Assembly: GCA_965207225.1 (NCBI GenBank)
Contig: CBDBLV010000005.1
Coordinates: 1,600,001-1,664,000, forward strand
Source: Dehalococcoidia bacterium
GTDB taxonomy: Bacteria; Chloroflexota; Dehalococcoidia; Plut-88900
DNA length: 64,000 nt
Reading direction: 5' to 3'
Made by a program: the position numbers and the translations under genes. Positions 26,292 to 38,783 of this stretch are shown in pieces (positions within the stretch are counted from its first letter, which is position 1; each line of letters opens with the position of its first letter). The notes under the pieces are model-generated. The model saw nothing but the letters and a program-made list of their open reading frames with translations. It had not been told where the DNA came from and did not search any database.

Positions 26292-26365
26292 GATAAAGGG
26301 AGTAGGGTAGGGGGCTGTGCTAAAATCGGCGAATCCGGGCATTGAAGAGCGAGGCATTTACGCGC

Positions 26366-27130
26366 ATGCAGCTACCTCACATAGGACTGGATATTGACGG
26401 ACCGGTGGCCGTTTTGACGTTGAGGGGAGAGGATGAGTCCAATCGTGTGACGGCGGCAATGGGGGAGGACATGGCGGCGACGGTTGAATGGGTCAGGGAC
26501 GACGAGAGTGTGCGGGTTGTGGTGGTGACGGGGGAGGGTGCGGTGTTCTCCGGGGGGACAGAGGCGGCGGTGAGGGAGGTCGTGGGCAGGGGTGTTGACA
26601 GGGCGCCGGGCGCGGCCCGCCATATCGCTCAACTGGCTTTACCGGTGATTGCGGCAGTCAATGGGGATGCGCTGGGGTTGGGGCTGGAGCTGGCGCTGGC
26701 CTGTGACCTTAGGGTGGCGAGCGAGGAAGCCGTTTTCGCGATGGACCAGATCAAGTACGGAATGATGTCGTGGGACGGCGGGACGCAGCGTTTGCCGAGG
26801 CTGGTGGGCCGGGGGCGGGGGGCGGCGATGGTTTTAACCGGGATGGAGGTGGATGCCGAGAGGGCGCTGGAGATGGGGTTGGCGCACGCCTTGTTTCCGA
26901 GGGAATCGGTGGTGAAGGAAGCCATTGCGCTGGCGCACAGAATTGCGAACCATGCCCCCGTGGCCCTGGAGTATGCAAAAGAAACGATAAACAAGGGGAT
27001 GGACATGACGCTGGACCAGGGGCTCAGGCTGGAGCAGGACCTGACCGTGATATTGCAGTCGACGGCAGACCGGGCCGAGGGAATCCGGTCTTTCCTGGAG
27101 AAGCGCAAGCCAGAATTCCGCGGCGAATAG
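26366..27130 (+). CDS. Enoyl-CoA hydratase/isomerase family protein
   Basis: PVIAAVNGDALGLGLELALACDLR, GGTQRLPRLVG, FLEKRKPEF. Confidence 0.92.
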   Translation: MQLPHIGLDIDGPVAVLTLRGEDESNRVTAAMGEDMAATVEWVRDDESVRVVVVTGEGAVFSGGTEAAVREVVGRGVDRAPGAARHIAQLALPVIAAVNGDALGLGLELALACDLRVASEEAVFAMDQIKYGMMSWDGGTQRLPRLVGRGRGAAMVLTGMEVDAERALEMGLAHALFPRESVVKEAIALAHRIANHAPVALEYAKETINKGMDMTLDQGLRLEQDLTVILQSTADRAEGIRSFLEKRKPEFRGE

Positions 27131-27137
27131 GGGCGGT

Positions 27138-27869
27138 ATGGAGAGTTTCGAGACGGTTATCTTCGAGATACGGGACTCGGTGGCGTGGGTCACACTTAAC
27201 AGGCCCCGGGTGCTGAACGCTTACAACGTCCAGATGCGGGACGACCTGTATGAGGCATTAACTGCGGTGTCGTGGGACTCGGAGATCAGGGCGGTGGTGA
27301 TATCGGGGGCCGGGGACCGGGCGTTTTGCGCAGGCGCCGACCTGACGGAGTTCGGGACTGCGCCATCGCAGAGGATTGCACGGCAGGTGAGGTGGGAGAG
27401 GGACGTGTGGGGCTTGCTTATGGATTTGCCCATCCCGACGATTGCGGCGATGCACGGGTACGTTTTTGGGTCGGGCCTAGAGATTGCGCTGTGCTGCGAT
27501 ATCAGAATCGCGACGCCGAATGCAATCTTCGGGCTGCCGGAGACGTCGTTAGGTTTCATACCGGCGGCGGGGGCCACTCAGACTTTTCCGAGGGCGGTCG
27601 GGACCGGGCAGGCATTGTGGACGCTGTTGACCGCAGAGCGGATGGACGCTAATCGGGCGCTCTCAATGGGGCTGATCAGCGAGATAGTGCCGGAGGGTGG
27701 ATTGAAGGCCCGGTGCGGGGCTTTGGCGGAGGGGTTCTTTAGGTCGGGGACGCGTCCCCTGGCGGCGGCGAAGGCAGCGATGCGTCGGGGGCTGGACCTG
27801 CTCCTGGAAGAGGGGCTGGGGGTGGAGTCGGGGCTGGCGCGAGAGCTTATCCGAGCCGGCAATAGATAA
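27138..27869 (+). CDS. Enoyl-CoA hydratase/isomerase family protein
   Basis: VTLNRP, AFCAGADL, GSGLEIALCCDIR, FGLPETSLG. Confidence 0.92.
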   Translation: MESFETVIFEIRDSVAWVTLNRPRVLNAYNVQMRDDLYEALTAVSWDSEIRAVVISGAGDRAFCAGADLTEFGTAPSQRIARQVRWERDVWGLLMDLPIPTIAAMHGYVFGSGLEIALCCDIRIATPNAIFGLPETSLGFIPAAGATQTFPRAVGTGQALWTLLTAERMDANRALSMGLISEIVPEGGLKARCGALAEGFFRSGTRPLAAAKAAMRRGLDLLLEEGLGVESGLARELIRAGNR

Positions 27870-27925
27870 ACGTTGAAGGGCGCGATAGAATAGTGGCCCA
27901 AAGCCTAGAAACAGGGGAACGGTGA

Positions 27926-29500
27926 ATGAACACGCCTGAATTTCTTCTTATCTCCAGCTCGATATGTCCCGACCGGGAAGCGATCATATTCGAGGGACAT
28001 CGGTGGACTTTCTCGGACTTGGCTGAACGGTCGAACCGCCTCGCCAATGCTCTGGCGGGGATGGGGGTGGGGCAGGGAGATAAGGTGGGAATGTTGCAGG
28101 TCAACTGCAACGAGTGCATCGAGGTCTATTTTGCCACGGCCAAGCTGGGGGCTACTTACGTGCCACTGAACTTCCGGGCGAAGGCCGACGAGCTGGCTTA
28201 CATGGTCAACTTCTCGGAGTCGTCGGTGATCTTTATCGGTGGCAGGTACGTGAAGCTGGTGAATTCGTTAAGGGACGAGATGCCGGCGTTGAAGCACGTG
28301 GTGTCGGTGGAGGGGCCGGTGGAAGGGATGCTGGAATATGAGTCAATAATCGCCGAGTCGGACCCCGAGGAGGTGTTCACGGATATAGACGACAACGACA
28401 CGTCCATCCTGATGTTCACCGCAGGGACCACGGGCCAGCCGAAGGGCGTGATGCTCACCCACGACAACCTGGCCACCTACGTGCTCAACAACGTAAGCCC
28501 CGCGGACCCAGAGATAGAGGAGAAGAATATCCTGACCGTGCCGCTGTACCACATCGCAGGGATGCAGGCGGTGCTGGCGGCGGTGTACGGGGGTCGGACG
28601 CTGGTGGTGCAGAGGCAGTTCGAGGCGAGCGACTGGATGAAGCTAGTGGAGACGGAGCGGGTGACCCGAGCGATGATGGTGCCAACGATGCTAAAGGGGC
28701 TGATGGAGCACGAAGAGTTTCACGACCGGGACCTGAGCAGCCTTCAGGTCATCACGTACGGGGCGGCCCCGATGCCCGTGGAAGTCATCACCAAGGCGAT
28801 CGAGGAGCTGCCCGGGACCCGGTTCATCAACGCATTCGGGCAGACGGAGTCGGCTTCCACGATTACGATGCTGACGCCGGAAGACCACGTGATAGACGGG
28901 ACACCTGCGGAGAGGGCGCTGAAGCTGAAGAGGCTGGGGTCGATTGGCCGGGCGCTGGGGGACACGGAGGTGAAGATCTTCGACGAGGATGGGAACGAGG
29001 CTCCTACTGACGAGGTCGGAGAGATCGTGGCCCGCGGGCCGAGGGTGATGAAGGGTTACTGGAAGGCGGACGAGGCGACGAACACGACCATCCGCAATGG
29101 CTGGTTGTACACGGGCGACATGGGATACATGGACGAGGCGGGGTACATCTTCCTTTCGGGTCGGGCGAAGGACATCATCATCCGGGCCGGAGAGAACATT
29201 TCGCCGGAGCAGGTGGAAGCGACGCTGCATTCGCACCCGGCCATCGACGAGGCTGCGGTTATCGGGGTGCCGGACCCGCAGTGGGGCGAGACGGTAAGGG
29301 CGATTGTGGCGTTGAAGGATGGTGCGCAGGCCTCTGAGGACGACATAATCGAGCACTGCCGGGGACAGCTGGCGAGCTTCAAGAAACCGGAGTCGGTTAT
29401 TTTTGTGGACTCCTTGCCGAGGAACCAGATGGGGAAGGTGCTGAAGAGGGTGCTGCGGGAAGAGTACGGGCAGGCGGACGTTCCGATGATGGGGGCTTAG
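27926..29500 (+). CDS. Acyl-CoA synthetase (AMP-forming, long-chain fatty-acid--CoA ligase family)
   Basis: FTAGTTGQPKG, FGQTES, TGDMG, GRAKDII, PRNQMGKVLK. Confidence 0.95.
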   Translation: MNTPEFLLISSSICPDREAIIFEGHRWTFSDLAERSNRLANALAGMGVGQGDKVGMLQVNCNECIEVYFATAKLGATYVPLNFRAKADELAYMVNFSESSVIFIGGRYVKLVNSLRDEMPALKHVVSVEGPVEGMLEYESIIAESDPEEVFTDIDDNDTSILMFTAGTTGQPKGVMLTHDNLATYVLNNVSPADPEIEEKNILTVPLYHIAGMQAVLAAVYGGRTLVVQRQFEASDWMKLVETERVTRAMMVPTMLKGLMEHEEFHDRDLSSLQVITYGAAPMPVEVITKAIEELPGTRFINAFGQTESASTITMLTPEDHVIDGTPAERALKLKRLGSIGRALGDTEVKIFDEDGNEAPTDEVGEIVARGPRVMKGYWKADEATNTTIRNGWLYTGDMGYMDEAGYIFLSGRAKDIIIRAGENISPEQVEATLHSHPAIDEAAVIGVPDPQWGETVRAIVALKDGAQASEDDIIEHCRGQLASFKKPESVIFVDSLPRNQMGKVLKRVLREEYGQADVPMMGA

Positions 29501-30174
29501 TCGTCTTCGGCTAGTTCTCGGGCGCGGGCTAGGTCGGCCTTAGCGTTTTCACCTTCGCCGAGCTTGTTGTACAGGCTTGCGCGGTCTTCGTAGGCTTCGG
29601 CGTAGTAGGCGTCCAGTTTGATGGCGTAGGAGAGGTCGTCCAGAGCCTCGGGGAGGCGGTCCTGGGCGGCGAACAGCAAACCCCTGTGATGGTATGCCTC
29701 GGGGAGGCGGCTGTCCTGGAGGATGGCGTTGTCCAGGGACTCGAGGGCCCGGGCAGCGAGACGGGGCCTGGAGCGGGGTGGGGCCGACTCGGACTGCTTG
29801 GCGTAGACGATCCCGACGTTGAGGAGGGCACGGGCGTCTCGGGGGTTGAGCTTTAGAGCCTGCTTGTACTGCTTCAGGGCGGCGGCAAGCTGTCCTTTTC
29901 TCAGGTAGCAGGTGCCGAGGTTCGAGAGCAGGGCGCTGTCTACGGGGCCGAATTTCCTGGCGGAGTTCAGGTCGCGGATGGCGGCGTTAAGGTTGCCGAG
30001 GCCGCCGTGGGCGAGGCCCCGGTAGAAATAGGCGTGGGCGTCCCTGGGGTTCTGAGCGAGGGCCTCGTCGAGGTGGGCCAGGGCGTCCTCCCAGCGGCCT
30101 TCCTTGACGGCCTTTTCGCCCTTTCGGGAGCCGACGACCCAGCCGAGTCCGCGTAGTTTGTCTAGGATTCCCAT
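29497..30174 (-). CDS. Tetratricopeptide-repeat protein
   Basis: Repeated TPR units (AYFYRG, NLGTCY, AYHHRG, AYEDRA). Confidence 0.88.
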   Translation of the reverse strand: MGILDKLRGLGWVVGSRKGEKAVKEGRWEDALAHLDEALAQNPRDAHAYFYRGLAHGGLGNLNAAIRDLNSARKFGPVDSALLSNLGTCYLRKGQLAAALKQYKQALKLNPRDARALLNVGIVYAKQSESAPPRSRPRLAARALESLDNAILQDSRLPEAYHHRGLLFAAQDRLPEALDDLSYAIKLDAYYAEAYEDRASLYNKLGEGENAKADLARARELAEDD

Positions 30175-30238
30175 AAGAGGTGTAGTTTAACTGAAGGTGA
30201 GGGAGGCCTGTCCCAGGGGAAGGCAGCGACGAGTGCCT

Positions 30239-31240
30239 CTATGATGGGGTGGTTACGTTGAAGATGCGGGGGGCGATGTGGGCGAGGAGGAGGTCGGTGG
30301 ACATGATCATTGAGCGGCCGGAGGGGTCGATGCGGGGGGAGACCTCGACGAAGTCCATGGCGCCGATGGGGTAGCTGGAGAGAATGCGGAGTATGGTGGC
30401 CATGATGTCGGGGGTGATGGCGTCGTTGACGACAGAGCCGGTGGCGGGAAAGAACCCGGTGTCTATGAAGTCGATGTCGACGGACATGTAGATGAAATCG
30501 CAGCCGGCGGAGGCGCGCTCGCCGGCCTGGCGGGCGACCTGCTCGGGGCCAATGCGGAGGACGTCGGCGGCGGTGAAGATGAGGCCGTTGTTGGAATCGA
30601 TAGCGCTGACGGGTTCCTCGTCGGACCAGCCCTGGATGCCGATCCAGACCATGTTGGAAGGGCTGACAAGGTCGAGCTCGGAGATGCGGCGGGCGTTGGT
30701 GCCGTGGTTGTACTTGCCCCAGACGGGGGTGTCGTCCCGGAAGTCGAGGTGGCCGTCGATGTGGATGTAGCCGATCCTGGGCTTTGGGGAAAGCTCGGTG
30801 ACGGCACGGGTGTAGCCCAGGCAGGAGGGGTAGCCGACGTAATGATCGCCGCCGAGGCAGACGGAGAAGCCTCCCCGCTTCACGACCTCTTCGACACCTC
30901 CGGCAATGCCTTCCGTGGACTTCATTACGTCGGAGGGGTAGACGTTGTAGTCGCCGACATCGACGAGGCGGTTGGTATCGGGGAGGGTGAGGCGGTCGCC
31001 GGAGGCGACATCGAGGATGCCGTCGGGGCCCGATTCGTGGATTCGCTGGGCCATGGCGAGGGAACCGTCCCTGATGCCTCGGGGGCCCATTCGAGTGCCG
31101 AAGCGGCTGGTGTGGGTGCTGTCGTGGGGGGCGCCGCCGATGACGACCATGCCGCGTTCGACCTTGTCCATGGCCACGTAGGGCGAGCCGAGGAAGGTGG
31201 AGGCGCCTATATCCACCAATTGGTGTGCTTGTTCACTCAC
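30239..31240 (-). CDS. Ureohydrolase (agmatinase/arginase family), intact dimetal site (A2)
   Basis: GGDH, HIDGHLD, NHGT, SVDID, VEVSP. Confidence 0.92.
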   Translation of the reverse strand: MSEQAHQLVDIGASTFLGSPYVAMDKVERGMVVIGGAPHDSTHTSRFGTRMGPRGIRDGSLAMAQRIHESGPDGILDVASGDRLTLPDTNRLVDVGDYNVYPSDVMKSTEGIAGGVEEVVKRGGFSVCLGGDHYVGYPSCLGYTRAVTELSPKPRIGYIHIDGHLDFRDDTPVWGKYNHGTNARRISELDLVSPSNMVWIGIQGWSDEEPVSAIDSNNGLIFTAADVLRIGPEQVARQAGERASAGCDFIYMSVDIDFIDTGFFPATGSVVNDAITPDIMATILRILSSYPIGAMDFVEVSPRIDPSGRSMIMSTDLLLAHIAPRIFNVTTPS

Positions 31241-32244
31241 TTGTAGCTCCCGGTGAGCCTGATCTTTTCGTCTATGAAGCGGATGAGCATTTCGACACCG
31301 CAGCGTTGCCCGGTCTTGACGAGGCTCATTGTTTCGATGAGGGGATTTAGGCCGCAGAGGCTGATGCCGCCGACCGGGCCACGGGCGAGGAGGGGCATGG
31401 CCTCGAAGAGCTCGACGTTGCGGAGGCCGTCGAATCGGGGGGTGCCGGTCATGGCGACGTAGCCGCCGTCCATTACGTCTATGTCGATGCCCACGAAGAT
31501 GCCGGAGCAGTTGTGGGAGGCGCTGTCAAGGGCTTCGGAGATTACGTCAGGGATGCCGCGGGTGTGGACCTGTTCGGCGGTGATGACCGTGGCCGGCAGC
31601 CTTTCGGCCATCTGCCACTGCTCCAGGGGTATGTAGCCATTGGCGCCGATAAAGACCATGTTTTCGGGGCGGACTGTTTCGGAGTCCAGGAGGCGTCTAG
31701 CGGTGGCGCCGCGCCAGACGTCTCCCCAGACCGGGTCCCGGGACCCGAGGTCAAGGCGGCTGGAAAACTGGATGTAGCCCACGGAGCCGCCGTCCGATTC
31801 ACGGAGGGCTTCCAGGTATCCCTGGACCAAGGGATAGGTGATGAAATGGTCGCCGCCGAGGGCCACGGGGGTAGCGCCCCGGAAGGTTATGTCTCGGGCG
31901 GCGTTGTGGAGGGTGGAGGACATGATATCCCAGTCGACGTGGGAGACGGGCAGGTCGCCGAGGTCCCGGACCAAGTTGCGGACGACATTGGTGTTGGTTG
32001 TGAGGCGGGAATTGATCTCAACCAGGGTAGCGTCTTGGGCGGTCATCATCTGGAAGTAGGTGGAGGTCTCCCGGTAAGCCTTGGGTGCGACCCGCGGGCC
32101 GATCTGGTCGGGGCTGGAAACGTCGTAAGGAACGCCAAAGATGCCGAACATGCTGGGTGTCAGTTCGTCGATGACGCCCGTGGGTGCCCCGATGAAGGTC
32201 ATCAGGCCGCTGGTCTTGGGAATGGGGCCTCTGCGGATGGGCAT
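31237..32244 (-). CDS. Ureohydrolase-fold protein with degenerate metal site (B2)
   Basis: GGDH and DID kept; QFSSRLD replaces DxHxD; CGLNP replaces VExxP. Confidence 0.88.
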   Translation of the reverse strand: MPIRRGPIPKTSGLMTFIGAPTGVIDELTPSMFGIFGVPYDVSSPDQIGPRVAPKAYRETSTYFQMMTAQDATLVEINSRLTTNTNVVRNLVRDLGDLPVSHVDWDIMSSTLHNAARDITFRGATPVALGGDHFITYPLVQGYLEALRESDGGSVGYIQFSSRLDLGSRDPVWGDVWRGATARRLLDSETVRPENMVFIGANGYIPLEQWQMAERLPATVITAEQVHTRGIPDVISEALDSASHNCSGIFVGIDIDVMDGGYVAMTGTPRFDGLRNVELFEAMPLLARGPVGGISLCGLNPLIETMSLVKTGQRCGVEMLIRFIDEKIRLTGSYK

Positions 32245-32245
32245 A

Positions 32246-32638
32246 TCAGATGCCTACTTCCCTGGAACCGCTAACACCGTTGCCGGTTGCAGAGTCGGGC
32301 TTTGGATCTCGTTTTCTTGCCCTGCCGCCTATTTTGACGACTTTGACAAAGGCAGATGTCAGAGAAACTACCAGGGCGTACAGCAAGTCTGTGAAGGACT
32401 TAAAGAGCATCATCAGAATAGTTATCAGAAAAGCCACGATAGTAACAGCGAGGGACGTAAACAAAAGGTAGTCACCCAAGGTGTAGGGCAGTGAACGATA
32501 AACATCCGTTGTACCCGGCACCAATTCAAGCCTGTCAATCCTCAAGGCGACAGTTATAGCCAAGATGACGTTTAGGACAACTATGAAACCGAGAACCAGA
32601 AATAAGATATTCCAGCTAGCGAACCGGGGTGGGGCCAA
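32246..32638 (-). CDS. Small membrane protein (2-3 TM)
   Basis: Hydrophobic segments; TTG start after AGAGGAG; lower GC than flanks. Confidence 0.65.
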   Translation of the reverse strand: MAPPRFASWNILFLVLGFIVVLNVILAITVALRIDRLELVPGTTDVYRSLPYTLGDYLLFTSLAVTIVAFLITILMMLFKSFTDLLYALVVSLTSAFVKVVKIGGRARKRDPKPDSATGNGVSGSREVGI

Positions 32639-32717
32639 ATGTGAACTCCTCTTCTGAATGTCCTTTATGTGCCTTTGGACTATCCGCTCTCGGGAGGCCA
32701 GGAATTGAAGCGTATTA

Positions 32718-32930
32718 TCAGGTCTTTCGCCAAATTAGATTGAAGAATTTGAGAGCCATAAGCAGGACGGTAAGGAGAAATGCCAGCATGGTGAGTACGG
32801 AGGCGAGCAGCAGGGAAATGCCCACGCTGTCGTGGAGCAGGACGTGGAGAATCCAGAGGATGATGCTGGCAACCAGGAACAGAACCTGGGCTGCGAGCAG
32901 CTTGAGCCAGGTGAAACCGCTTAACTTCAT
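32718..32930 (-). CDS. Small 2-TM membrane protein
   Basis: 70 aa, two hydrophobic helices, starts 18 nt after the upstream stop. Confidence 0.6.
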   Translation of the reverse strand: MKLSGFTWLKLLAAQVLFLVASIILWILHVLLHDSVGISLLLASVLTMLAFLLTVLLMALKFFNLIWRKT

Positions 32931-32948
32931 ATCGATTCACTGATGTGT

Positions 32949-33920
32949 TCAATAGACCTCAAAGATTTTGAGGGTGATGAGCTTTATGAGGGCCTCGGCG
33001 GCGAAACGGGGTGTACGGCTGCTGGGGTCGAGGGGTGGGGAGGTCTCGACGAGGTCCATGGAGCCGATGGGGAACTGGGACAGGGGCCCGAGGATCCGGA
33101 AGAGGGTCGAGGCGGTCATAGCTCCCATGGTGACGGAGCCGGTGCCATCGGAGAAGCCAGCGTCTATCACGTCGATGTCGAAGCTCATGTAGATGGTGTC
33201 GCAGCCTCGCATGGCCAGCTCTCCGGCGCGGTAGCCGACGGTCTCGGGACCCATTTCCTCAACGTCTTCGCTGGTGAAGATGGTGCCTCCGTAGCGCCGG
33301 ATAAGCTCGACCTGGTCGAGGTAGCAGGGGCCCTGGATGCCGATGAAGACCATGTTTGCGGGCTCCATGGCATCGAGTTCGGAGATGCGCCGGGCGTTGG
33401 TGCCGTTCATGTACTTGCCGTAGGGGCCGTAGGAATCGGCGAAGTCCAGGTGTCCGTCGATGTGGATGTAGCCGACGCGGGCGTTGGGTCTAAGTCGGCC
33501 CAGGGCCCGGGTGTAGCCAAGGCAGGATGGGTAGCCGACGTAGTGGTCGCCGCCCAGGCAGACGGAGAATCCGCCCCGCATCACCACCTCAGAAACACCG
33601 CCGGCGATACCCTCGGTGGCCTTCATCACGTCGGAGGGGTAGGAGTTGAAGTCTCCGACATCGACGAGGGGGAAATCGTTGGGGCGGATTAGGGTGTGGC
33701 CAGTCGTTACGTCTATGAGGCCCTCGGGGGCGTGGTCGAACTTCTGGGAGACGTTAAGAGAGTGGTGGCGGATGCCCCGAGGGCCGTAGCGTTCGCCGAA
33801 GCGGTCCCGGAGGCTGTGGGGTGCGCCGCTTATGACGGTCATGCCGGGCTGTACGTCGGAGAGGCCGACGAGGGGAGCGCCCATGAAAGTCGGGGCTGAG
33901 GTATGTGCGTAGTCCTGCAT
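32949..33920 (-). CDS. Ureohydrolase, intact dimetal site (A1)
   Basis: GGDH, HIDGHLD, MNGT, SFDID, VETSP. Confidence 0.92.
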   Translation of the reverse strand: MQDYAHTSAPTFMGAPLVGLSDVQPGMTVISGAPHSLRDRFGERYGPRGIRHHSLNVSQKFDHAPEGLIDVTTGHTLIRPNDFPLVDVGDFNSYPSDVMKATEGIAGGVSEVVMRGGFSVCLGGDHYVGYPSCLGYTRALGRLRPNARVGYIHIDGHLDFADSYGPYGKYMNGTNARRISELDAMEPANMVFIGIQGPCYLDQVELIRRYGGTIFTSEDVEEMGPETVGYRAGELAMRGCDTIYMSFDIDVIDAGFSDGTGSVTMGAMTASTLFRILGPLSQFPIGSMDLVETSPPLDPSSRTPRFAAEALIKLITLKIFEVY

Positions 33921-33933
33921 GGTGTTTGGGGCG

Positions 33934-34917
33934 CTAAGGGTAGGCGAGGGCCTCCCCGGCGAGGAAACGGATGACTATCCAGGCCCCGAGCCGTTGTCCT
34001 GTGGCGGAGACCATGTTGATGGTCGGGTTCATGCCGACGAGGTCAAGGGCCCCGGCCTTCTTGCGGCGAAGGATGTCTACAGCTTTCAGTAGCTCGACGT
34101 TGGTGAGGCCATCGAAGCAGGGGTCGGCGGTGGCGGCGACGATGCCGCCATCCATCACGTCAAAGTCAATGCTGACGTAGACGGAATCACAGCCGTCACC
34201 GGCGATGGCCATAGCCTCTTCGACCACGGGCTGGAGGCCCCGTTGCCGGATGTCGGCGAGGGTGAAGACGGAGAGGTCATTTTCTCGGGCGTAGTCCCAC
34301 TCCTCTCGGCGGACGTAGCCGTTGACGCCCACCCAGACCATGTTCTTCGGGGAAACGGCGCCCGAATCCAGGATGCGTCGGGCGGTGGCGCCGCGCCAGA
34401 CGTCTCCCCAAACGGGATCACTTGACCCGAGGTCGAGGCGGCTGGAAAGCTGGATATAGCCAACGCTGCCGCCCGAGCGTTCGCGCACGGCATCGGCGTA
34501 GCCGAGGCAGAGGGGGTAGGAGATGAAATGGTCGCCGCCGAGGACTACTGGGGTCGCACCCGTGGAGGCTACTTCGTAAAGAGAGCGTCGCAACTCCTTC
34601 TCGGTGCGGGGCCAGTCGAGGGGATAGGCGTTGAAATCGCCGAGGTCGAGGATCTGGGAGCGTCGGGCGCCGCTCATGCGGTCCCCGGTGGTGATTTCGA
34701 CTAGGTCGTTGCGGGAGAAGGCGCCGGCGTAGTAGGAAGCGCTGTCTCGAATGGCCCGGCCTCCGAAGCGCGAGCCGATGCGGGAGGTGCAGGATAGATC
34801 GTAGGAGACGCCGCAGATGGCAACCATGCCCTCTCTGAGGTGCTCAAGGTCCCCGCGGGGCAGGTCCATGAAGGTGGTAATGCCCGGCGTGGAAACGGGT
34901 GCGGATTGCGTAGTCAT
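33934..34917 (-). CDS. Ureohydrolase-fold protein with degenerate metal site (B1)
   Basis: GGDH, QLSSRLD, SIDFD, VGMNP; close paralog of 31237-32244. Confidence 0.88.
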   Translation of the reverse strand: MTTQSAPVSTPGITTFMDLPRGDLEHLREGMVAICGVSYDLSCTSRIGSRFGGRAIRDSASYYAGAFSRNDLVEITTGDRMSGARRSQILDLGDFNAYPLDWPRTEKELRRSLYEVASTGATPVVLGGDHFISYPLCLGYADAVRERSGGSVGYIQLSSRLDLGSSDPVWGDVWRGATARRILDSGAVSPKNMVWVGVNGYVRREEWDYARENDLSVFTLADIRQRGLQPVVEEAMAIAGDGCDSVYVSIDFDVMDGGIVAATADPCFDGLTNVELLKAVDILRRKKAGALDLVGMNPTINMVSATGQRLGAWIVIRFLAGEALAYP

Positions 34918-34931
34918 CAGGGTGTCGGGGG

Positions 34932-35912
34932 TCAGGCGCCGAAGACCCGGGGGGCGATTAGCTCGATGATGCACTGGGCGGCGAGGCGCTCGGAGCGGCC
35001 CCGGACGTCGAGGCCCGGGGCTACTTCCACCACGTCCAGGGCGGCGATCTCGGAGGAGGTGGACAGGGCGCGCATGAGAGCCAACAGGTCTCTGGGGACG
35101 ACGCCACCGACCACTATATCGGCGGTGCCGGAGGCGTAGCCTGAGTCTACGACACCGATGTCGAGGCTGACGTAAATGGCGTTGCAGCCGTCTCCGGCGA
35201 GGTCAAGGGCTCGTTGGGCAGCGGCCTCGGAGCCCTGTTCTTTCAGGGAGTCGGCGGTGATTACGGTGACTCCCTGGTCTCGGGCGTGGTCCCATTCGCG
35301 GTAGGGTATGTAACCCTGGACGCCGATGCACACGGTGTTCCTGGCCTGGACGTTGCCAGCGTCGAGGATGCGATGGAGGGACGCACCTGTCCAGTCGGGG
35401 CCGTGGGAGGAGTCGGGATTGGCGAGGGAAAGCTGGCCGGATAAACGGATGAGGCCGACATTTTGTCCCAGGCCTTCGGCCAGGCCTCCGACCAAGGGGA
35501 AGGTGATGAAGCGATCGCCGCCGAGGGCCACGGGGAAGCCGCTGGATTTCGAGATACGAGAGAAGGCATCGGTGCAGGCATCAATGACGCCCTGTGAGTC
35601 CAGGGGGGAAGACTGGAGGTCACCGAGGTCTACGAGGGCATTGGTACTGGGGGTGTTGAGAACTCGGCCGGAGATGACGTCGATGAGGGCGCCGGACTGG
35701 GAGGCCTGGAGGTCGTAGATGAAATCTGCGCTGGCTTCGCGGATGGACCTGGGGCCCTGGCGAACGCCCTGCCGGGAGGTGGATGCGCCGTCATAGGGGA
35801 TGCCGACGACGGCGACGGCACCTGGCTGGATGTCGTCGAAGTCGGCTCTCGGGGCACGGGCGAAGGAGTTTATGCCGGCGAACGAGGGTAAGAGGTCTCG
35901 CTGGTAGGGCAC
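34932..35912 (-). CDS. Ureohydrolase-fold protein with strongly degenerate metal site (C)
   Basis: GIPYD, GVRQGP, DLGD, GGDR, RLSGQLSL, SLDIG, VEVAP; GTG start after AAGGAGG. Confidence 0.88.
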   Translation of the reverse strand: MPYQRDLLPSFAGINSFARAPRADFDDIQPGAVAVVGIPYDGASTSRQGVRQGPRSIREASADFIYDLQASQSGALIDVISGRVLNTPSTNALVDLGDLQSSPLDSQGVIDACTDAFSRISKSSGFPVALGGDRFITFPLVGGLAEGLGQNVGLIRLSGQLSLANPDSSHGPDWTGASLHRILDAGNVQARNTVCIGVQGYIPYREWDHARDQGVTVITADSLKEQGSEAAAQRALDLAGDGCNAIYVSLDIGVVDSGYASGTADIVVGGVVPRDLLALMRALSTSSEIAALDVVEVAPGLDVRGRSERLAAQCIIELIAPRVFGA

Positions 35913-35937
35913 GGGGGCCTCCTTTCAGGGGGATTGG

Positions 35938-35946
35938 ATTATAGCA
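35938..35946 (-). promoter_or_regulatory. Extended -10 promoter of the ureohydrolase operon
   Basis: TGCTATAAT about 25 nt upstream of the GTG start. Confidence 0.6.
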
Positions 35947-35959
35947 TGGGGGTGGGAAA

Positions 35960-36020
35960 GGAACCCTCACCCCCTTTATCCCCCTCTACCTCTAGTTCAA
36001 TACTGGGAAAAAGGGAGGGG
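35960..36020 (-). repeat. Internally deleted element Z
   Basis: GGAACCCTCACCCCCTTTATCCCCCTCT joined almost directly to CCTCTAGTTCAATACTGGG. Confidence 0.75.
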
Positions 36021-36125
36021 GAGAGGTTGTTCGTTGACTGGGGTAGGGGGTTTGCCTACACTACGATAGAATCTTGAAACAGTTTCAACAAAACGCAAGG
36101 GTCCTGGGTTAGAGAAAGAGCAGAT

Positions 36126-38783
36126 TTGAGGAGCGATGAGCTAAGACGGGAATTCCTGTCTTTCTATGAATCCAAGGGACACCTGGTCATACCCAGTTCG
36201 TCCCTCATTCCCATCGGGGATCCGACACTGCTGCTTACGAGCGCGGGGGTGGTGCAGATCAAGCCGTTCTTCACTGGTGAGGCGAAGGCGCCCGCGCCCC
36301 GGATTGCATCTTGCCAGAAGTGTTTCCGGACGACGGACATTGACTCGGTGGGGGATGCGGACCACCTGACATTCTTCGAAATGCTGGGTAATTTCAGCGT
36401 TGCAGACTATTTCAAGAAGGAAGCGATAGAGTGGGCCTGGGAGCTGGTGACGGGGCGGCTGAAGCTGCCGCCGGAGAGGCTGTGGGTAAGCGTTTTCCTG
36501 GATGACGACGAGTCGTACGAATACTGGCGGGGGCTGGGGGTGCCGGAGGAGCGGATGGTGCGGTACGACGAGAGCGAGAACTGGTGGGGGCCTCCTGGGG
36601 ACTCGGGGCCGTGCGGTCCATGCACGGAGATCTACTACGACTTCGGTGAAGAATTGTCGTGCGGCAAGCCCGACTGCGGCCCGGCCTGCGACTGCAACAG
36701 GTTCACGGAGTTTTATAACCTGGTGCTAACCGAATACTACCAGGACACCGAGGGCAACCGGACGCCTTTGCCCAACGGTAACATCGACACGGGCATGGGG
36801 CTAGAACGGACGGCGGCGATCCTGCAAGGCGTGACGAACGTCTATGAGACCGACGGTTTCCAGGCGATCATGGCGAAGGTGTCGGAGGTGACAGGACGGA
36901 GGTATGGGGCGGACCGGGATAGGGACGTGGCGATGCGGGTGCTGGCGGAGCACGGTCGGGGGACGACGTTCCTGGTCTGCGATGGAGTAGTGCCGTCCAA
37001 CGAGGGTCGGGGGTACGTGCTGAGGAGGATATTGCGTCGGGCGGTGACATACGCGAGGAAGTTGGGGGTGCGTAGACCGGTGCTAGTAACTATAGCGGAG
37101 ACGGTCATCGATAATATGAAGGAAGCCTACCCGGACCTGGAGCGGAACCGGGAGTTCGTGCTGAAGGTGATCGAGCAGGAAGAGGACCGTTTCCATGACA
37201 CCCTAGACGCGGGGATGGCTGAACTCAAGGCGATCATGGACGGGCAGTCTCGGGTGGAGGCGGATGGCCACATAACGATAGTCGATGATGAGATCAACCC
37301 CAGCACGGTATTCATGTTGTATGACACTTACGGATTTCCTGCCGAGCTTACACAAGAGTTTGCTGCCGAGCGCGGGTTTCGGGTGAACATGGCCGGATTC
37401 AACAGGGCGATGGAGGCGCAGAGAGCCAGGAGCAGGGCCGCCAAGGGGTTTGGCAGGGACAAGACCGCGGAAGCCTATGCAGCAGCGGGGGTGTGGACTA
37501 CCGAGTTCACGGGTTACGAGAACCTGGTCGGGGATTCGGTGGTTGTGGGGCTGTTGAGGGAGGGGGTGTCGGTGCAGAGGGTGGGAGAGGGTGAAGAGGT
37601 GGAAGTGGTGACTATGGAGACGCCGTTCTACGCCGAGGGCGGAGGCCAGGTCGGGGACAGGGGAGAGATAACAGGCGTGAGCGGGCGATTCTTGGTTGAA
37701 GACACGCAGGCGACTCAGCTTGGGTTCTACGTACACAGGGGGAGGGTAGTGGATGGCGAGATGGGTGTCGGGGAGCCGGTGAAGATGACGGTGGACCCGG
37801 GGCACAGGAGGGAGTCGACGCGGAACCATACAGCTACACACCTGCTGCATGCAGCGTTGAGGCAGGTACTGGGACAGCATGTCCGGCAGGCGGGGTCGCT
37901 GGTTGCGCCGGACAGGCTGAGGTTCGACTTCACGCACCCGGTGGGGTTGGGTCGGGGGGACCTGCAAAGTATCCGGGACCTGGTGAATGACAAGATTCGC
38001 TTGGACTTGTCGGTATCCAATGACTCGGCGCCTTATTCGGAGGCGATTAGCAGGGGGGCGCTGGCGTTCTTCGGGGACAAGTACCCGGACGTCGTGAGGC
38101 TGGTGTCGATGGGCGAGGGTAACGACAGGTTCAGCTTCGAGGTGTGCGGCGGGACGCACGTGGGCCGGACAGGAGAAGTTTGGAACTTCCAGGTTACGGA
38201 TGAAGGGAGCATAGGGTCGGGGCTGAGGAGGATTGAAGCGGTGACCGGGGCGTCGGTGCAGGAACTGCTGGCAAAGCGGTACGACCTGGTCGACGAGATA
38301 TCGGCGCAACTGCAGTCGGCGCCGGATGATATTGCGAAGAAGATAATGTCGTTGATGGAGGAGCTGGAAGCACAACGTAGGAGAGCTGATCGGCTGGAGC
38401 GGGATGCGGGGCGTCGGGAGGCTGAGGACCTGCTGACGCAGGTACAGGACGTTGACGGGGCCAAAGTGGTCGCAGCACGAGTTGACGCCCCGAATATCGA
38501 GACTATGCGGGAGATGGGAGACCTGCTTAAGGCGAAGCTGGGCAGCGTGTTCGTGGTGCTGGGGTCGGTGATCAATGACCGGCCAGCGTTCATAGCAATG
38601 GCCACACCCGACCTGGCGGCAAGGGGATTGCACGCAGGGAATATCGTGAAGCAGGTGGCCAAGGTTGCGGGAGGGGGAGGGGGAGGAAGTGCGGAGATGG
38701 CACAGGCGGGTGGGAAGGACAAGAGCAAGGTGTCGGCGGCGCTGGAGGAGGTGGCGAGGTTGGTTAGAGAGGGTGGGGGGTAA
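36126..38783 (+). CDS. alaS: Alanine--tRNA ligase
   Basis: DPTLLLTSAG, HLTFFEMLGNFS, IDTGMGLER, NHTATHLLH, CGGTH, GGGG...AQAGG. Confidence 0.99.
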   Translation: MRSDELRREFLSFYESKGHLVIPSSSLIPIGDPTLLLTSAGVVQIKPFFTGEAKAPAPRIASCQKCFRTTDIDSVGDADHLTFFEMLGNFSVADYFKKEAIEWAWELVTGRLKLPPERLWVSVFLDDDESYEYWRGLGVPEERMVRYDESENWWGPPGDSGPCGPCTEIYYDFGEELSCGKPDCGPACDCNRFTEFYNLVLTEYYQDTEGNRTPLPNGNIDTGMGLERTAAILQGVTNVYETDGFQAIMAKVSEVTGRRYGADRDRDVAMRVLAEHGRGTTFLVCDGVVPSNEGRGYVLRRILRRAVTYARKLGVRRPVLVTIAETVIDNMKEAYPDLERNREFVLKVIEQEEDRFHDTLDAGMAELKAIMDGQSRVEADGHITIVDDEINPSTVFMLYDTYGFPAELTQEFAAERGFRVNMAGFNRAMEAQRARSRAAKGFGRDKTAEAYAAAGVWTTEFTGYENLVGDSVVVGLLREGVSVQRVGEGEEVEVVTMETPFYAEGGGQVGDRGEITGVSGRFLVEDTQATQLGFYVHRGRVVDGEMGVGEPVKMTVDPGHRRESTRNHTATHLLHAALRQVLGQHVRQAGSLVAPDRLRFDFTHPVGLGRGDLQSIRDLVNDKIRLDLSVSNDSAPYSEAISRGALAFFGDKYPDVVRLVSMGEGNDRFSFEVCGGTHVGRTGEVWNFQVTDEGSIGSGLRRIEAVTGASVQELLAKRYDLVDEISAQLQSAPDDIAKKIMSLMEELEAQRRRADRLERDAGRREAEDLLTQVQDVDGAKVVAARVDAPNIETMREMGDLLKAKLGSVFVVLGSVINDRPAFIAMATPDLAARGLHAGNIVKQVAKVAGGGGGGSAEMAQAGGKDKSKVSAALEEVARLVREGGG

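Follow-up and report, generated by a model that had tools for sequence, protein, structure and literature searches.

A conserved array of ligand-complete and degenerate arginase-family genes in Dehalococcoidia: candidate mixed-subunit guanidino-group hydrolases

Why should a bacterium keep, in a single gene array, full-length arginase-family proteins that have lost catalytic metal ligands side by side with relatives that retain all of them? The question is raised by a stretch of 64,000 nucleotides (hereafter the window) from a Dehalococcoidia bacterium (contig CBDBLV010000005.1, positions 1,600,001 to 1,664,000; assembly GCA_965207225.1). Between positions 30239 and 35912 of the window, seven open reading frames (ORFs) lie head to tail on the minus strand in the order C, B1, A1, m1, m2, B2, A2 (Table 1). 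All five large ORFs match the Pfam family Arginase, PF00491 (E from 7e-40 to 6e-56), with scores of 190.3 (C), 158.0 (B1), 169.9 (A1), 137.6 (B2), and 184.1 bits (A2) at a gathering score of 22. Our data support the conclusion that, far from being relics, B1, B2, and C are degenerate paralogs of full length that have been conserved under selection. As to the purpose they are kept for, we lean, with some reserve, toward the seven genes forming one operon whose products may assemble into mixed-subunit guanidino-group hydrolases.

Ligand states, conservation, and history of the degenerate paralogs

The six metal-ligand positions of the family, which we take from their roles in arginase I to be a His, the Asp-x-His-x-Asp motif, and the Asp-x-Asp motif, with a substrate-binding Glu in addition, read H-D-H-D-D-D in A1 and A2, H-S-R-D-D-D in B1 and B2, and R-S-Q-S-D-G in C. 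Both B proteins have substitutions at the first Asp and at the His of DxHxD, and C has them at five of the six positions. A1, A2, and C retain the Glu of V-E-x-x-P, which is Gly in B1 and B2. The full catalytic set of six ligands plus Glu is found in A1 and A2; B1, B2, and C lack it. The original prediction, made from the letters of the window, had likewise credited only A1 and A2 with all canonical ligands, and alignment confirmed this, together with every motif that it quoted for the five proteins. The motifs are GGDH, HIDGHLD, MNGT, DID, and VETSP in A1; GGDH, HIDGHLD, NHGT, DID, and VEVSP in A2; GGDH, QLSSRLD, DFD, and VGMNP in B1; GGDH, QFSSRLD, DID, and CGLNP in B2; and GGDR, RLSGQLS, DIG, and VEVAP in C. 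The alignments also bore out that B1 and B2 have DPVWGDVWRGATARR in common and A1 and A2 GGFSVCLGGDHYVGYPSCLGYTRA, and that A1 has Asn (MNGT) in the loop where A2 has His (NHGT); this difference proved to be a stable trait of two ortholog groups. C is 32-34% identical to the other four proteins.

A locus scan restricted to one genome per species, with ORFs compared by blastp, yielded 71 loci, drawn from metagenome-assembled genomes (MAGs). A true B-family gene was present in 18 of these (L001 to L018, 54-98% identity), and in all 18 the first B has C directly upstream, in the same operon position as in the window, and A directly downstream. The order is exactly C-B1-A1-B2-A2 at 12 of the 18 loci (L001-L010, L015, and L017), and C-B-A-B-A-A with three further arginase-family genes upstream at L011, L013, L014, and L016; the array of L012 is truncated behind its second B gene, and L018 carries a C-B-A trio. 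A more distant trio of C-like, B-like, and A genes was found at L021 (Rokuibacteriota). Because gene order and substitutions recur in other species, the array lies far beyond chance, and the five-paralog arrangement of intact and degenerate members described in the original prediction stands. We also sampled 301 genomes from the class, which are kin and not independent observations. Exactly three B/C-type matches occurred in each of the 11 other genomes of the window's family, and 1 of 289 genomes from other families had any B/C-type match at E≤1e-70.

The hosts are labelled as Dehalococcoidia or Chloroflexota MAGs, with the exception of L015 and L021 (Rokubacteria). The whole C-B1-A1-B2-A2 array of L015 / L061, labelled Candidatus Rokubacteria, is 52-72% identical to that of the window, and the L015 copy nests among Dehalococcoidia copies in the tree. 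This points to either horizontal transfer or mis-binning.

The substitutions are stable features of the degenerate families. A search with B1 retrieved 140 proteins at E≤1e-10, the best 120 of which were listed; the corresponding numbers were 77 for C and 868, with the best 120 listed, for A1. Among the B matches listed, the first Asp of DxHxD is Ser in 120/120, neither the bridging Asp nor the His of this motif survives in any of the 120, the Glu of VExxP is Gly in 118/120, and Arg occupies the position of the A2 loop His in 117/120. The ligand state H-S-[QR]-D-D-D is found in 82/120. The stretch W-G-x-V-W-R-G-A-T-A-R-R, a loop at what was once the active site, varies little or not at all. 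H-D-H-D-D-D was seen in 119/120 of the A matches listed. For C, 76 of the 77 matches were examined, the 77th (P0094) having already been counted under B: 33 are H-S-Q-D-D-D, 17 are of the further-degenerate type of the window (R/K/G-S/T-x-S/A-D-x), 11 are H-A-x-D-D-G, and the remainder comprise three intact distant enzymes and proteins that are partial or different. The Glu is kept in 67/76. Further ligands were lost from C in the lineage of the window (L001-L008), and distant C orthologs keep H-S-Q-D-D-D. Since this ligand state of distant C is also that of B, C is not a kind of degenerate protein apart from B.

Selection on these genes was assessed by pairwise NG86 comparison of the window and 12 loci (78 pairs per gene, of which the 56-62 pairs with a synonymous rate, dS, of 0.05-1.5 were kept). 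With dS partly saturated, the median ratios of nonsynonymous to synonymous rates (dN/dS) were 0.110 for A1, 0.120 for A2, 0.091 for B1, 0.184 for B2, and 0.223 for C. B and C experience purifying selection of a strength similar to that acting on A, and the dN/dS check asked for in the original prediction came out against neutral evolution. The degenerate genes, described there as full length, are so in every locus examined. Loss of catalytic ligands, progressively more of them in C of the window's lineage, is what could be cited for the idea that B1, B2, and C are decaying functionless duplicates, pseudogenes in the making. We consider this scarcely credible in view of their intact length, of dN/dS between 0.09 and 0.22, and of the age and spread of families that count 140 B-type and 77 C-type proteins.

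The same data bear on a second alternative, namely that B1, B2, and the ancestral C are enzymes or ligand-binders with a remodelled site, in which one metal would be held by His/Asp/Asp and complemented by the Trp-Arg loop, and that they work as separate homomers. They might act in the pathway of A on its product or a related compound, or serve as sensors or carriers of guanidino substrates. The almost invariant state of four of the six B ligand positions and of the loop is in line with this proposal, as is the finding that B1 is as constrained as catalytic A1. It is countered by the universal loss of the bridging Asp and the His and the near-universal loss of the substrate-binding Glu among the B matches listed. 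Moreover, C of the window's lineage lost three more ligands and selection on it persists, so that at least one protein of the degenerate clade can do without the ligand residues. We know of no solved arginase-fold ureohydrolase that works with a B-type site. On these grounds we regard a function of B and C apart from A as unlikely, albeit worth keeping in mind.

The history of the array was reconstructed with IQ-TREE (LG+C20+F+G4) from 44 rows picked from 186 arginase-family ORFs of the loci and the window's own genome; more distant paralogs were left out of this tree, and its root was not inferred. A single branch with support 99/98 separates 24 ligand-complete from 20 degenerate rows. Clades B (100/99), C (97/92), and A (98/96) were recovered, and within them B1 (99/97), B2 (99/95), A1 (100/99), and A2 (95/92); a quicker tree of 62 rows gave the same groups. 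The B1/B2 and A1/A2 splits lie at the same depth, both after divergence of the L018 trio. These parallel splits imply joint duplication of a B-A pair, as the original prediction had proposed, with C left single. A recent B-A duplication was rejected, since both copies form separate clades across species. The simplest history consistent with the tree would comprise one degeneration of the metal site, an early split of B and C that gave the C-B-A trio, and a later duplication of B-A. Occurrence of C-B-A trios in two distant loci suggests that three types of subunit were already present in the ancestral unit.

This pattern also speaks to a third alternative, that the array merely clusters five independent homomers, with A1 and A2 being enzymes of the agmatinase or guanidino-acid-hydrolase type and B and C having unrelated moonlighting roles. 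Homomers are the rule in the family, and most of the 15 PF00491 genes of the genome lie elsewhere and singly. However, a fixed order and tight spacing persist across species down to 50-70% identity, B and A were duplicated in parallel, and B/C-type and A genes always occur together in the sampled loci. We judge independent homomers to be improbable.

A second, unrelated pair of intact and degenerate genes was found beside the array at L011 (6895-8859), L013 (6703-8794), L014 (6840-8907), L016 (6792-8895), and L018 (13-1735). Its intact member carries DFDAHxD and VE[IML]D[CP], and the next gene reads G-D-R-D-D-S/T (GGAG, or GGDG in L018; HFDSRSD). The pair forms its own clade in the quick tree, with support 100. 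Its presence suggests repeated origins of pseudoenzyme partners in these bacteria.

Proposed assembly of the array products

Our inference of mixed oligomers draws on the conserved pattern described above and on the precedent of metformin hydrolase. A1 and A2 would be catalytic subunits with a binuclear metal site, and B1, B2, and C non-catalytic paralogs retained because they are assembled with the A subunits. Similarly to MetCb/MefH-beta of metformin hydrolase, B and C may contribute the remaining subunits of an arginase-type trimer or hexamer, maintain A in soluble form, and help to shape the substrate entrance. The ancestral C-B-A trio could have supplied one catalytic and two different non-catalytic subunits, in the 1:2 ratio of the alpha1-beta2 metformin hydrolase trimer. 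Duplication of B-A would then have given rise to two isoenzymes, A1+B1 and A2+B2, that differ in loop Asn versus His, with the single C probably being shared by both. The substrate is probably a small guanidino compound, cleavage of which would yield urea and an amine, and ammonia might then be released by the urease of the genome. Mn is more likely to be the metal than chaperone-delivered Ni.

A stricter version of this assembly is conceivable, in which the array encodes an obligate three-component (alpha-beta-gamma) ureohydrolase and C is shared by A1-B1-C and A2-B2-C isoenzymes with different substrate loops. In the metformin hydrolase trimer the inactive subunits are non-equivalent, one capping the active pocket and the other touching the opposite face; B and C, as anciently diverged pseudoenzymes, might take these two positions. 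The two non-equivalent inactive positions, together with the 1:2 gene ratio of the trio loci, suggest an A-B-C heterotrimer with shared C, although we hold the obligate three-component form only as a doubtful, tentative possibility. If true, this would make it the first enzyme with an arginase fold to consist of three different paralogous subunits, and a natural case of pseudoenzyme subfunctionalization independent of the metformin and dimethylguanidine hydrolases.

Several points weigh against assembly of mixed-subunit hydrolases. Arginase-family enzymes are normally homomers, and the genome holds eight other intact paralogs. The arrays of L011, L013, L014, and L016 have an A3:B2:C1 composition, which is at odds with a fixed 1:2 ratio. 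B keeps four ligands (His, Asp, Asp, and Asp) almost invariantly, as well as the conserved Trp/Arg-rich loop; since a pure scaffold needs neither, B may bind a metal or ligand or catalyze a reaction. The context does not indicate the substrate, as we saw no conservation of a transporter, regulator, or riboswitch next to the array. A complex prediction for A1+B1+C, made with our own alignments, scored 0.07 compared with a mark of 0.32 and weighs neither way on binding.

Gene anatomy and genomic surroundings

The genes are closely packed, with gaps of 14, 13, 18, 79, and 1 nucleotides in gene order from C to B2. The 4-nucleotide overlap of B2 and A2 (31237-31240), noticed already in the original prediction, is the same in L001, L003, L007, L008, and L009. 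The longest ORF of B1 spans 33934-34974 from an upstream GTG at 34974; we placed the start at 34917 because most homologs have 327-329 amino acids. The array is flanked by alaS (36126-38783, plus strand) and by a gene (29497-30174, minus strand) with 21 TPR-type Pfam matches.

Table 1. Features of the array and of the region upstream of it, in window positions
Feature	Position	Strand	Description
C	34932..35912	-	arginase-family, 326 amino acids; first gene of the operon
B1	33934..34917	-	arginase-family, 327 amino acids; bears WGDVWRGATARR loop and VGMNP
A1	32949..33920	-	arginase-family, 323 amino acids; six metal ligands complete, VETSP Glu, MNGT loop
m1	32718..32930	-	hydrophobic, 70 amino acids; two predicted membrane helices
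m2	32246..32638	-	hydrophobic, 130 amino acids; TTG start; variable insert
B2	31237..32244	-	arginase-family, 335 amino acids; CGLNP; begins 1 nucleotide past the m2 stop
A2	30239..31240	-	arginase-family, 333 amino acids; GTG start; six metal ligands complete, NHGT loop, VEVSP
Intergenic region C/alaS	35913..36125		divergent; presumed operon promoter region; holds a dispersed repeat

The two membrane ORFs predicted between A1 and B2 are real genes in that m1 and m2 evolve as coding sequence (dN/dS 0.09-0.35 for m1 and 0.20-0.35 for m2). Neither belongs to a Pfam or NCBIfam family, with a sub-threshold match of m2 to DUF6479 being the only hit. m1 is present in 6 of the 18 loci (L001, L002, L017, and L005-L007), all of them close relatives, and m2 only in the close relatives L001, L002, and L017; contigs from the metagenome runs X13 and X15 lack m2, position 32244 being joined to 32725. 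m1 and m2 are recent inserts within the operon. A stretch L-H-x3-H-D/E-S is conserved between the two helices of m1; that it could bind a metal is pure speculation. Run X15, labelled as a sponge metagenome, holds a relative that is ~93% identical.

Upstream of C, a short G/C-rich repeat of the hairpin type (~35950-35991) has 115 blastn-short matches in the window's own genome and looks like a dispersed element similar to repetitive extragenic palindromic (REP) sequences, not an operon-specific one. In four metagenome runs the summed contig depth of the bin 35812-36015 was 230-487, compared with ~5-50 elsewhere. An Rfam scan of 28000-38000 gave zero matches at E≤1, and therefore no guanidine or other known riboswitch. 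Counts in a scan for promoters and terminators were not above those of shuffles, and the sole sigma-70-like match faces alaS.

Beyond the array itself, a neighbor search of nine representative loci found nothing common to more than three loci; one neighbor cluster shared by five loci consists of antisense ORFs overlying the array. Pfam searches with 10 flanking genes of distant loci found a MoxR-type AAA protein, DUF58, and DUF4129 at L010, and class-III and class-IV aminotransferases and a gamma-glutamyltranspeptidase at L018, the latter set fitting amine handling at this one locus; four other genes or loci in this search gave no match. In the window, two ORFs that, read from their translations, have the size of putative enoyl-CoA hydratases, together with an ORF of 524 amino acids, adjoin the array (26342-29500, plus strand). 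Their counterparts adjoin it in L001, L003, and L009 only.

With respect to metal supply, the original prediction had noted that the window lacks hypAB, which holds true; moreover, no HypA match was found in the whole genome, which is 92.3% complete. The only match to the cobW family (C5:1698599-1699129) lies ~35 kb past the end of the window and ~63 kb from the operon, and it is the only match to a cobW/UreG-type GTPase in the genome. Urease alpha is present. It gave two equal-scoring matches 8 kb apart (C5:611916-612269 and C5:619856-620209), which reflect either a real duplication or an assembly artifact. For a genome of 4.03 Mb, the 15 PF00491 genes, the majority of which stand alone outside the array, represent an unusually large expansion. 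They include a tandem of intact paralogs (C2:327787-329900) and a divergent pair near C5:1904774-1908698. In an odd type of paralog (C4:300311-301375 and C1:196036-197139), GGDH is changed to G-Q-N-S, D-x-H-x-D and D-x-D are kept, and the motif ends with I-C-I-P-P; this type forms a long separate branch in the quick tree.

Comparison with known ureohydrolases

The NCBIfam models for agmatinase, formimidoylglutamase, and arginase leave the five proteins unassigned: the best scores were 104.1 for TIGR01230 (cut-off 174.3) and 125.2 for NF002564 (302), both agmatinase models, 119.8 for HutG (TIGR01227; 229.15), and 77.7 for arginase RocF (TIGR01229; 227.6). When PDB chains were searched with phmmer or with profiles, A1 scored 105.6 bits with both guanidinopropionase (3nip) and "Probable agmatinase 2" (7esr), and 55-56 bits with MetCa and MetCb, the subunits of metformin hydrolase. 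An A profile gave 148 bits with 9fek and 144 with 7esr, and no metformin hydrolase chain was among its PDB matches at E≤1e-20. B1 reached 92.5 bits with 7esr and 87.9 with a second "agmatinase 2" structure, compared with 68.5 for MetCb and 67.9 for MetCa; for a C profile the values were 185.4 (7esr) and 178 bits for "agmatinase 2", 96.9 for MetCb, and 77.5 for MetCa. By these lower scores, B and C are not orthologs of MetCb, and the cluster as a whole is not orthologous to MetCaCb/MefH. For A1, B1, and the C profile, several single-gene ureohydrolases outscore the MetCa and MetCb chains, and orthology to this characterized system, which the original prediction had named as a possible objection, is not indicated. 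Among 40 matches listed from a tblastn search of plasmids for MetCaCb DNA, we saw ordinary speB/agmatinase-family genes and no recognizable metformin-hydrolase locus.

The best-scoring solved relatives of A, B, and C are thus the "agmatinase 2" structures (7esr/7oi1 and 9fek), which we take to be the Ni-dependent guanidine hydrolase GdmH of the Sll1077 type. The fold is common to all, and A shares all metal ligands with them. However, the scores are far below family level, the active-site loop is different, and these structures contain single-protein chains without a degenerate partner. GdmH needs HypA/HypB-like chaperones; with A1 at only 105.6 bits and no HypA in the genome, A1 does not qualify as a GdmH. 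Next in rank are GpuA (3nip), GbuA (3nio), and the agmatinase SpeB, and the A2 loop N-H-G-T-N-A-R-R resembles T-H-G-T-P-F-R-R of 3nip.

In design, the array comes closest to MetCaCb/MefH-alpha-beta (MfmAB) and its precursor, the dimethylguanidine hydrolase DmgH (PDB 8x3g, 8ryi, and 8snf), in which a ligand-complete and a degenerate gene are likewise adjacent, as are B1-A1 and B2-A2. According to two reports, metformin hydrolase forms a dimer of trimers with one active and two metal-free subunits apiece; each subunit is inactive alone, the active one is poorly soluble by itself, and the active site is capped by the N-terminus of an inactive subunit (PMC11271267, PMC11399263). MetCa and MetCb are ~33-34% identical to each other, which is similar to A versus B/C here, the ratio of one active to two inactive subunits matches the C-B-A gene ratio, and MetCb, like B and C, constitutes a conserved degenerate clade. 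Differences concern the ligand pattern, R-G-Q-D-N-N for the MetCb chain as aligned versus H-S-Q/R-D-D-D here, and the composition, with one degenerate family and two genes in MetCaCb and two degenerate families and five genes in the array. The neighboring hypA/hypB genes of MetCaCb have no counterpart adjoining the array. As far as sequence comparison can tell, the resemblance is one of design and not of descent.

As to distribution, Li et al. (2024) list 56 homologous pairs in Proteobacteria, Actinomycetota, Acidobacteriota, and Planctomycetota and none in Chloroflexota (PMC11271267), which places the Dehalococcoidia host outside these four phyla. Sinn et al. (2024) mention tandem ureohydrolases in putative Limnocylindrales (Chloroflexota) that evolved independently of MefH (PMC11399263). 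These may belong to the same family as the proteins of the window; the mention includes no function, third subunit type, or five-gene array. Our literature search found no description of the Dehalococcoidia array; the supplementary tree and pair lists of the two reports may hold relatives.

The array points to the use of guanidino substrates by these bacteria as a source of nitrogen and offers a natural system for studying why enzyme complexes retain inactive paralogs. For annotation, it implies that the label "agmatinase family protein" hides at least three functionally different protein types here. The first heteromeric ureohydrolase shown to have a pseudoenzyme partner, in 2024, was a drug-degrading enzyme thought to have evolved recently. 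The operon described here suggests an independent and ancient origin of this architecture in uncultured Dehalococcoidia, where an entire family has it fixed in a more elaborate form that combines two families of pseudo-subunits with a duplicated pair of catalytic and pseudo-subunit genes.

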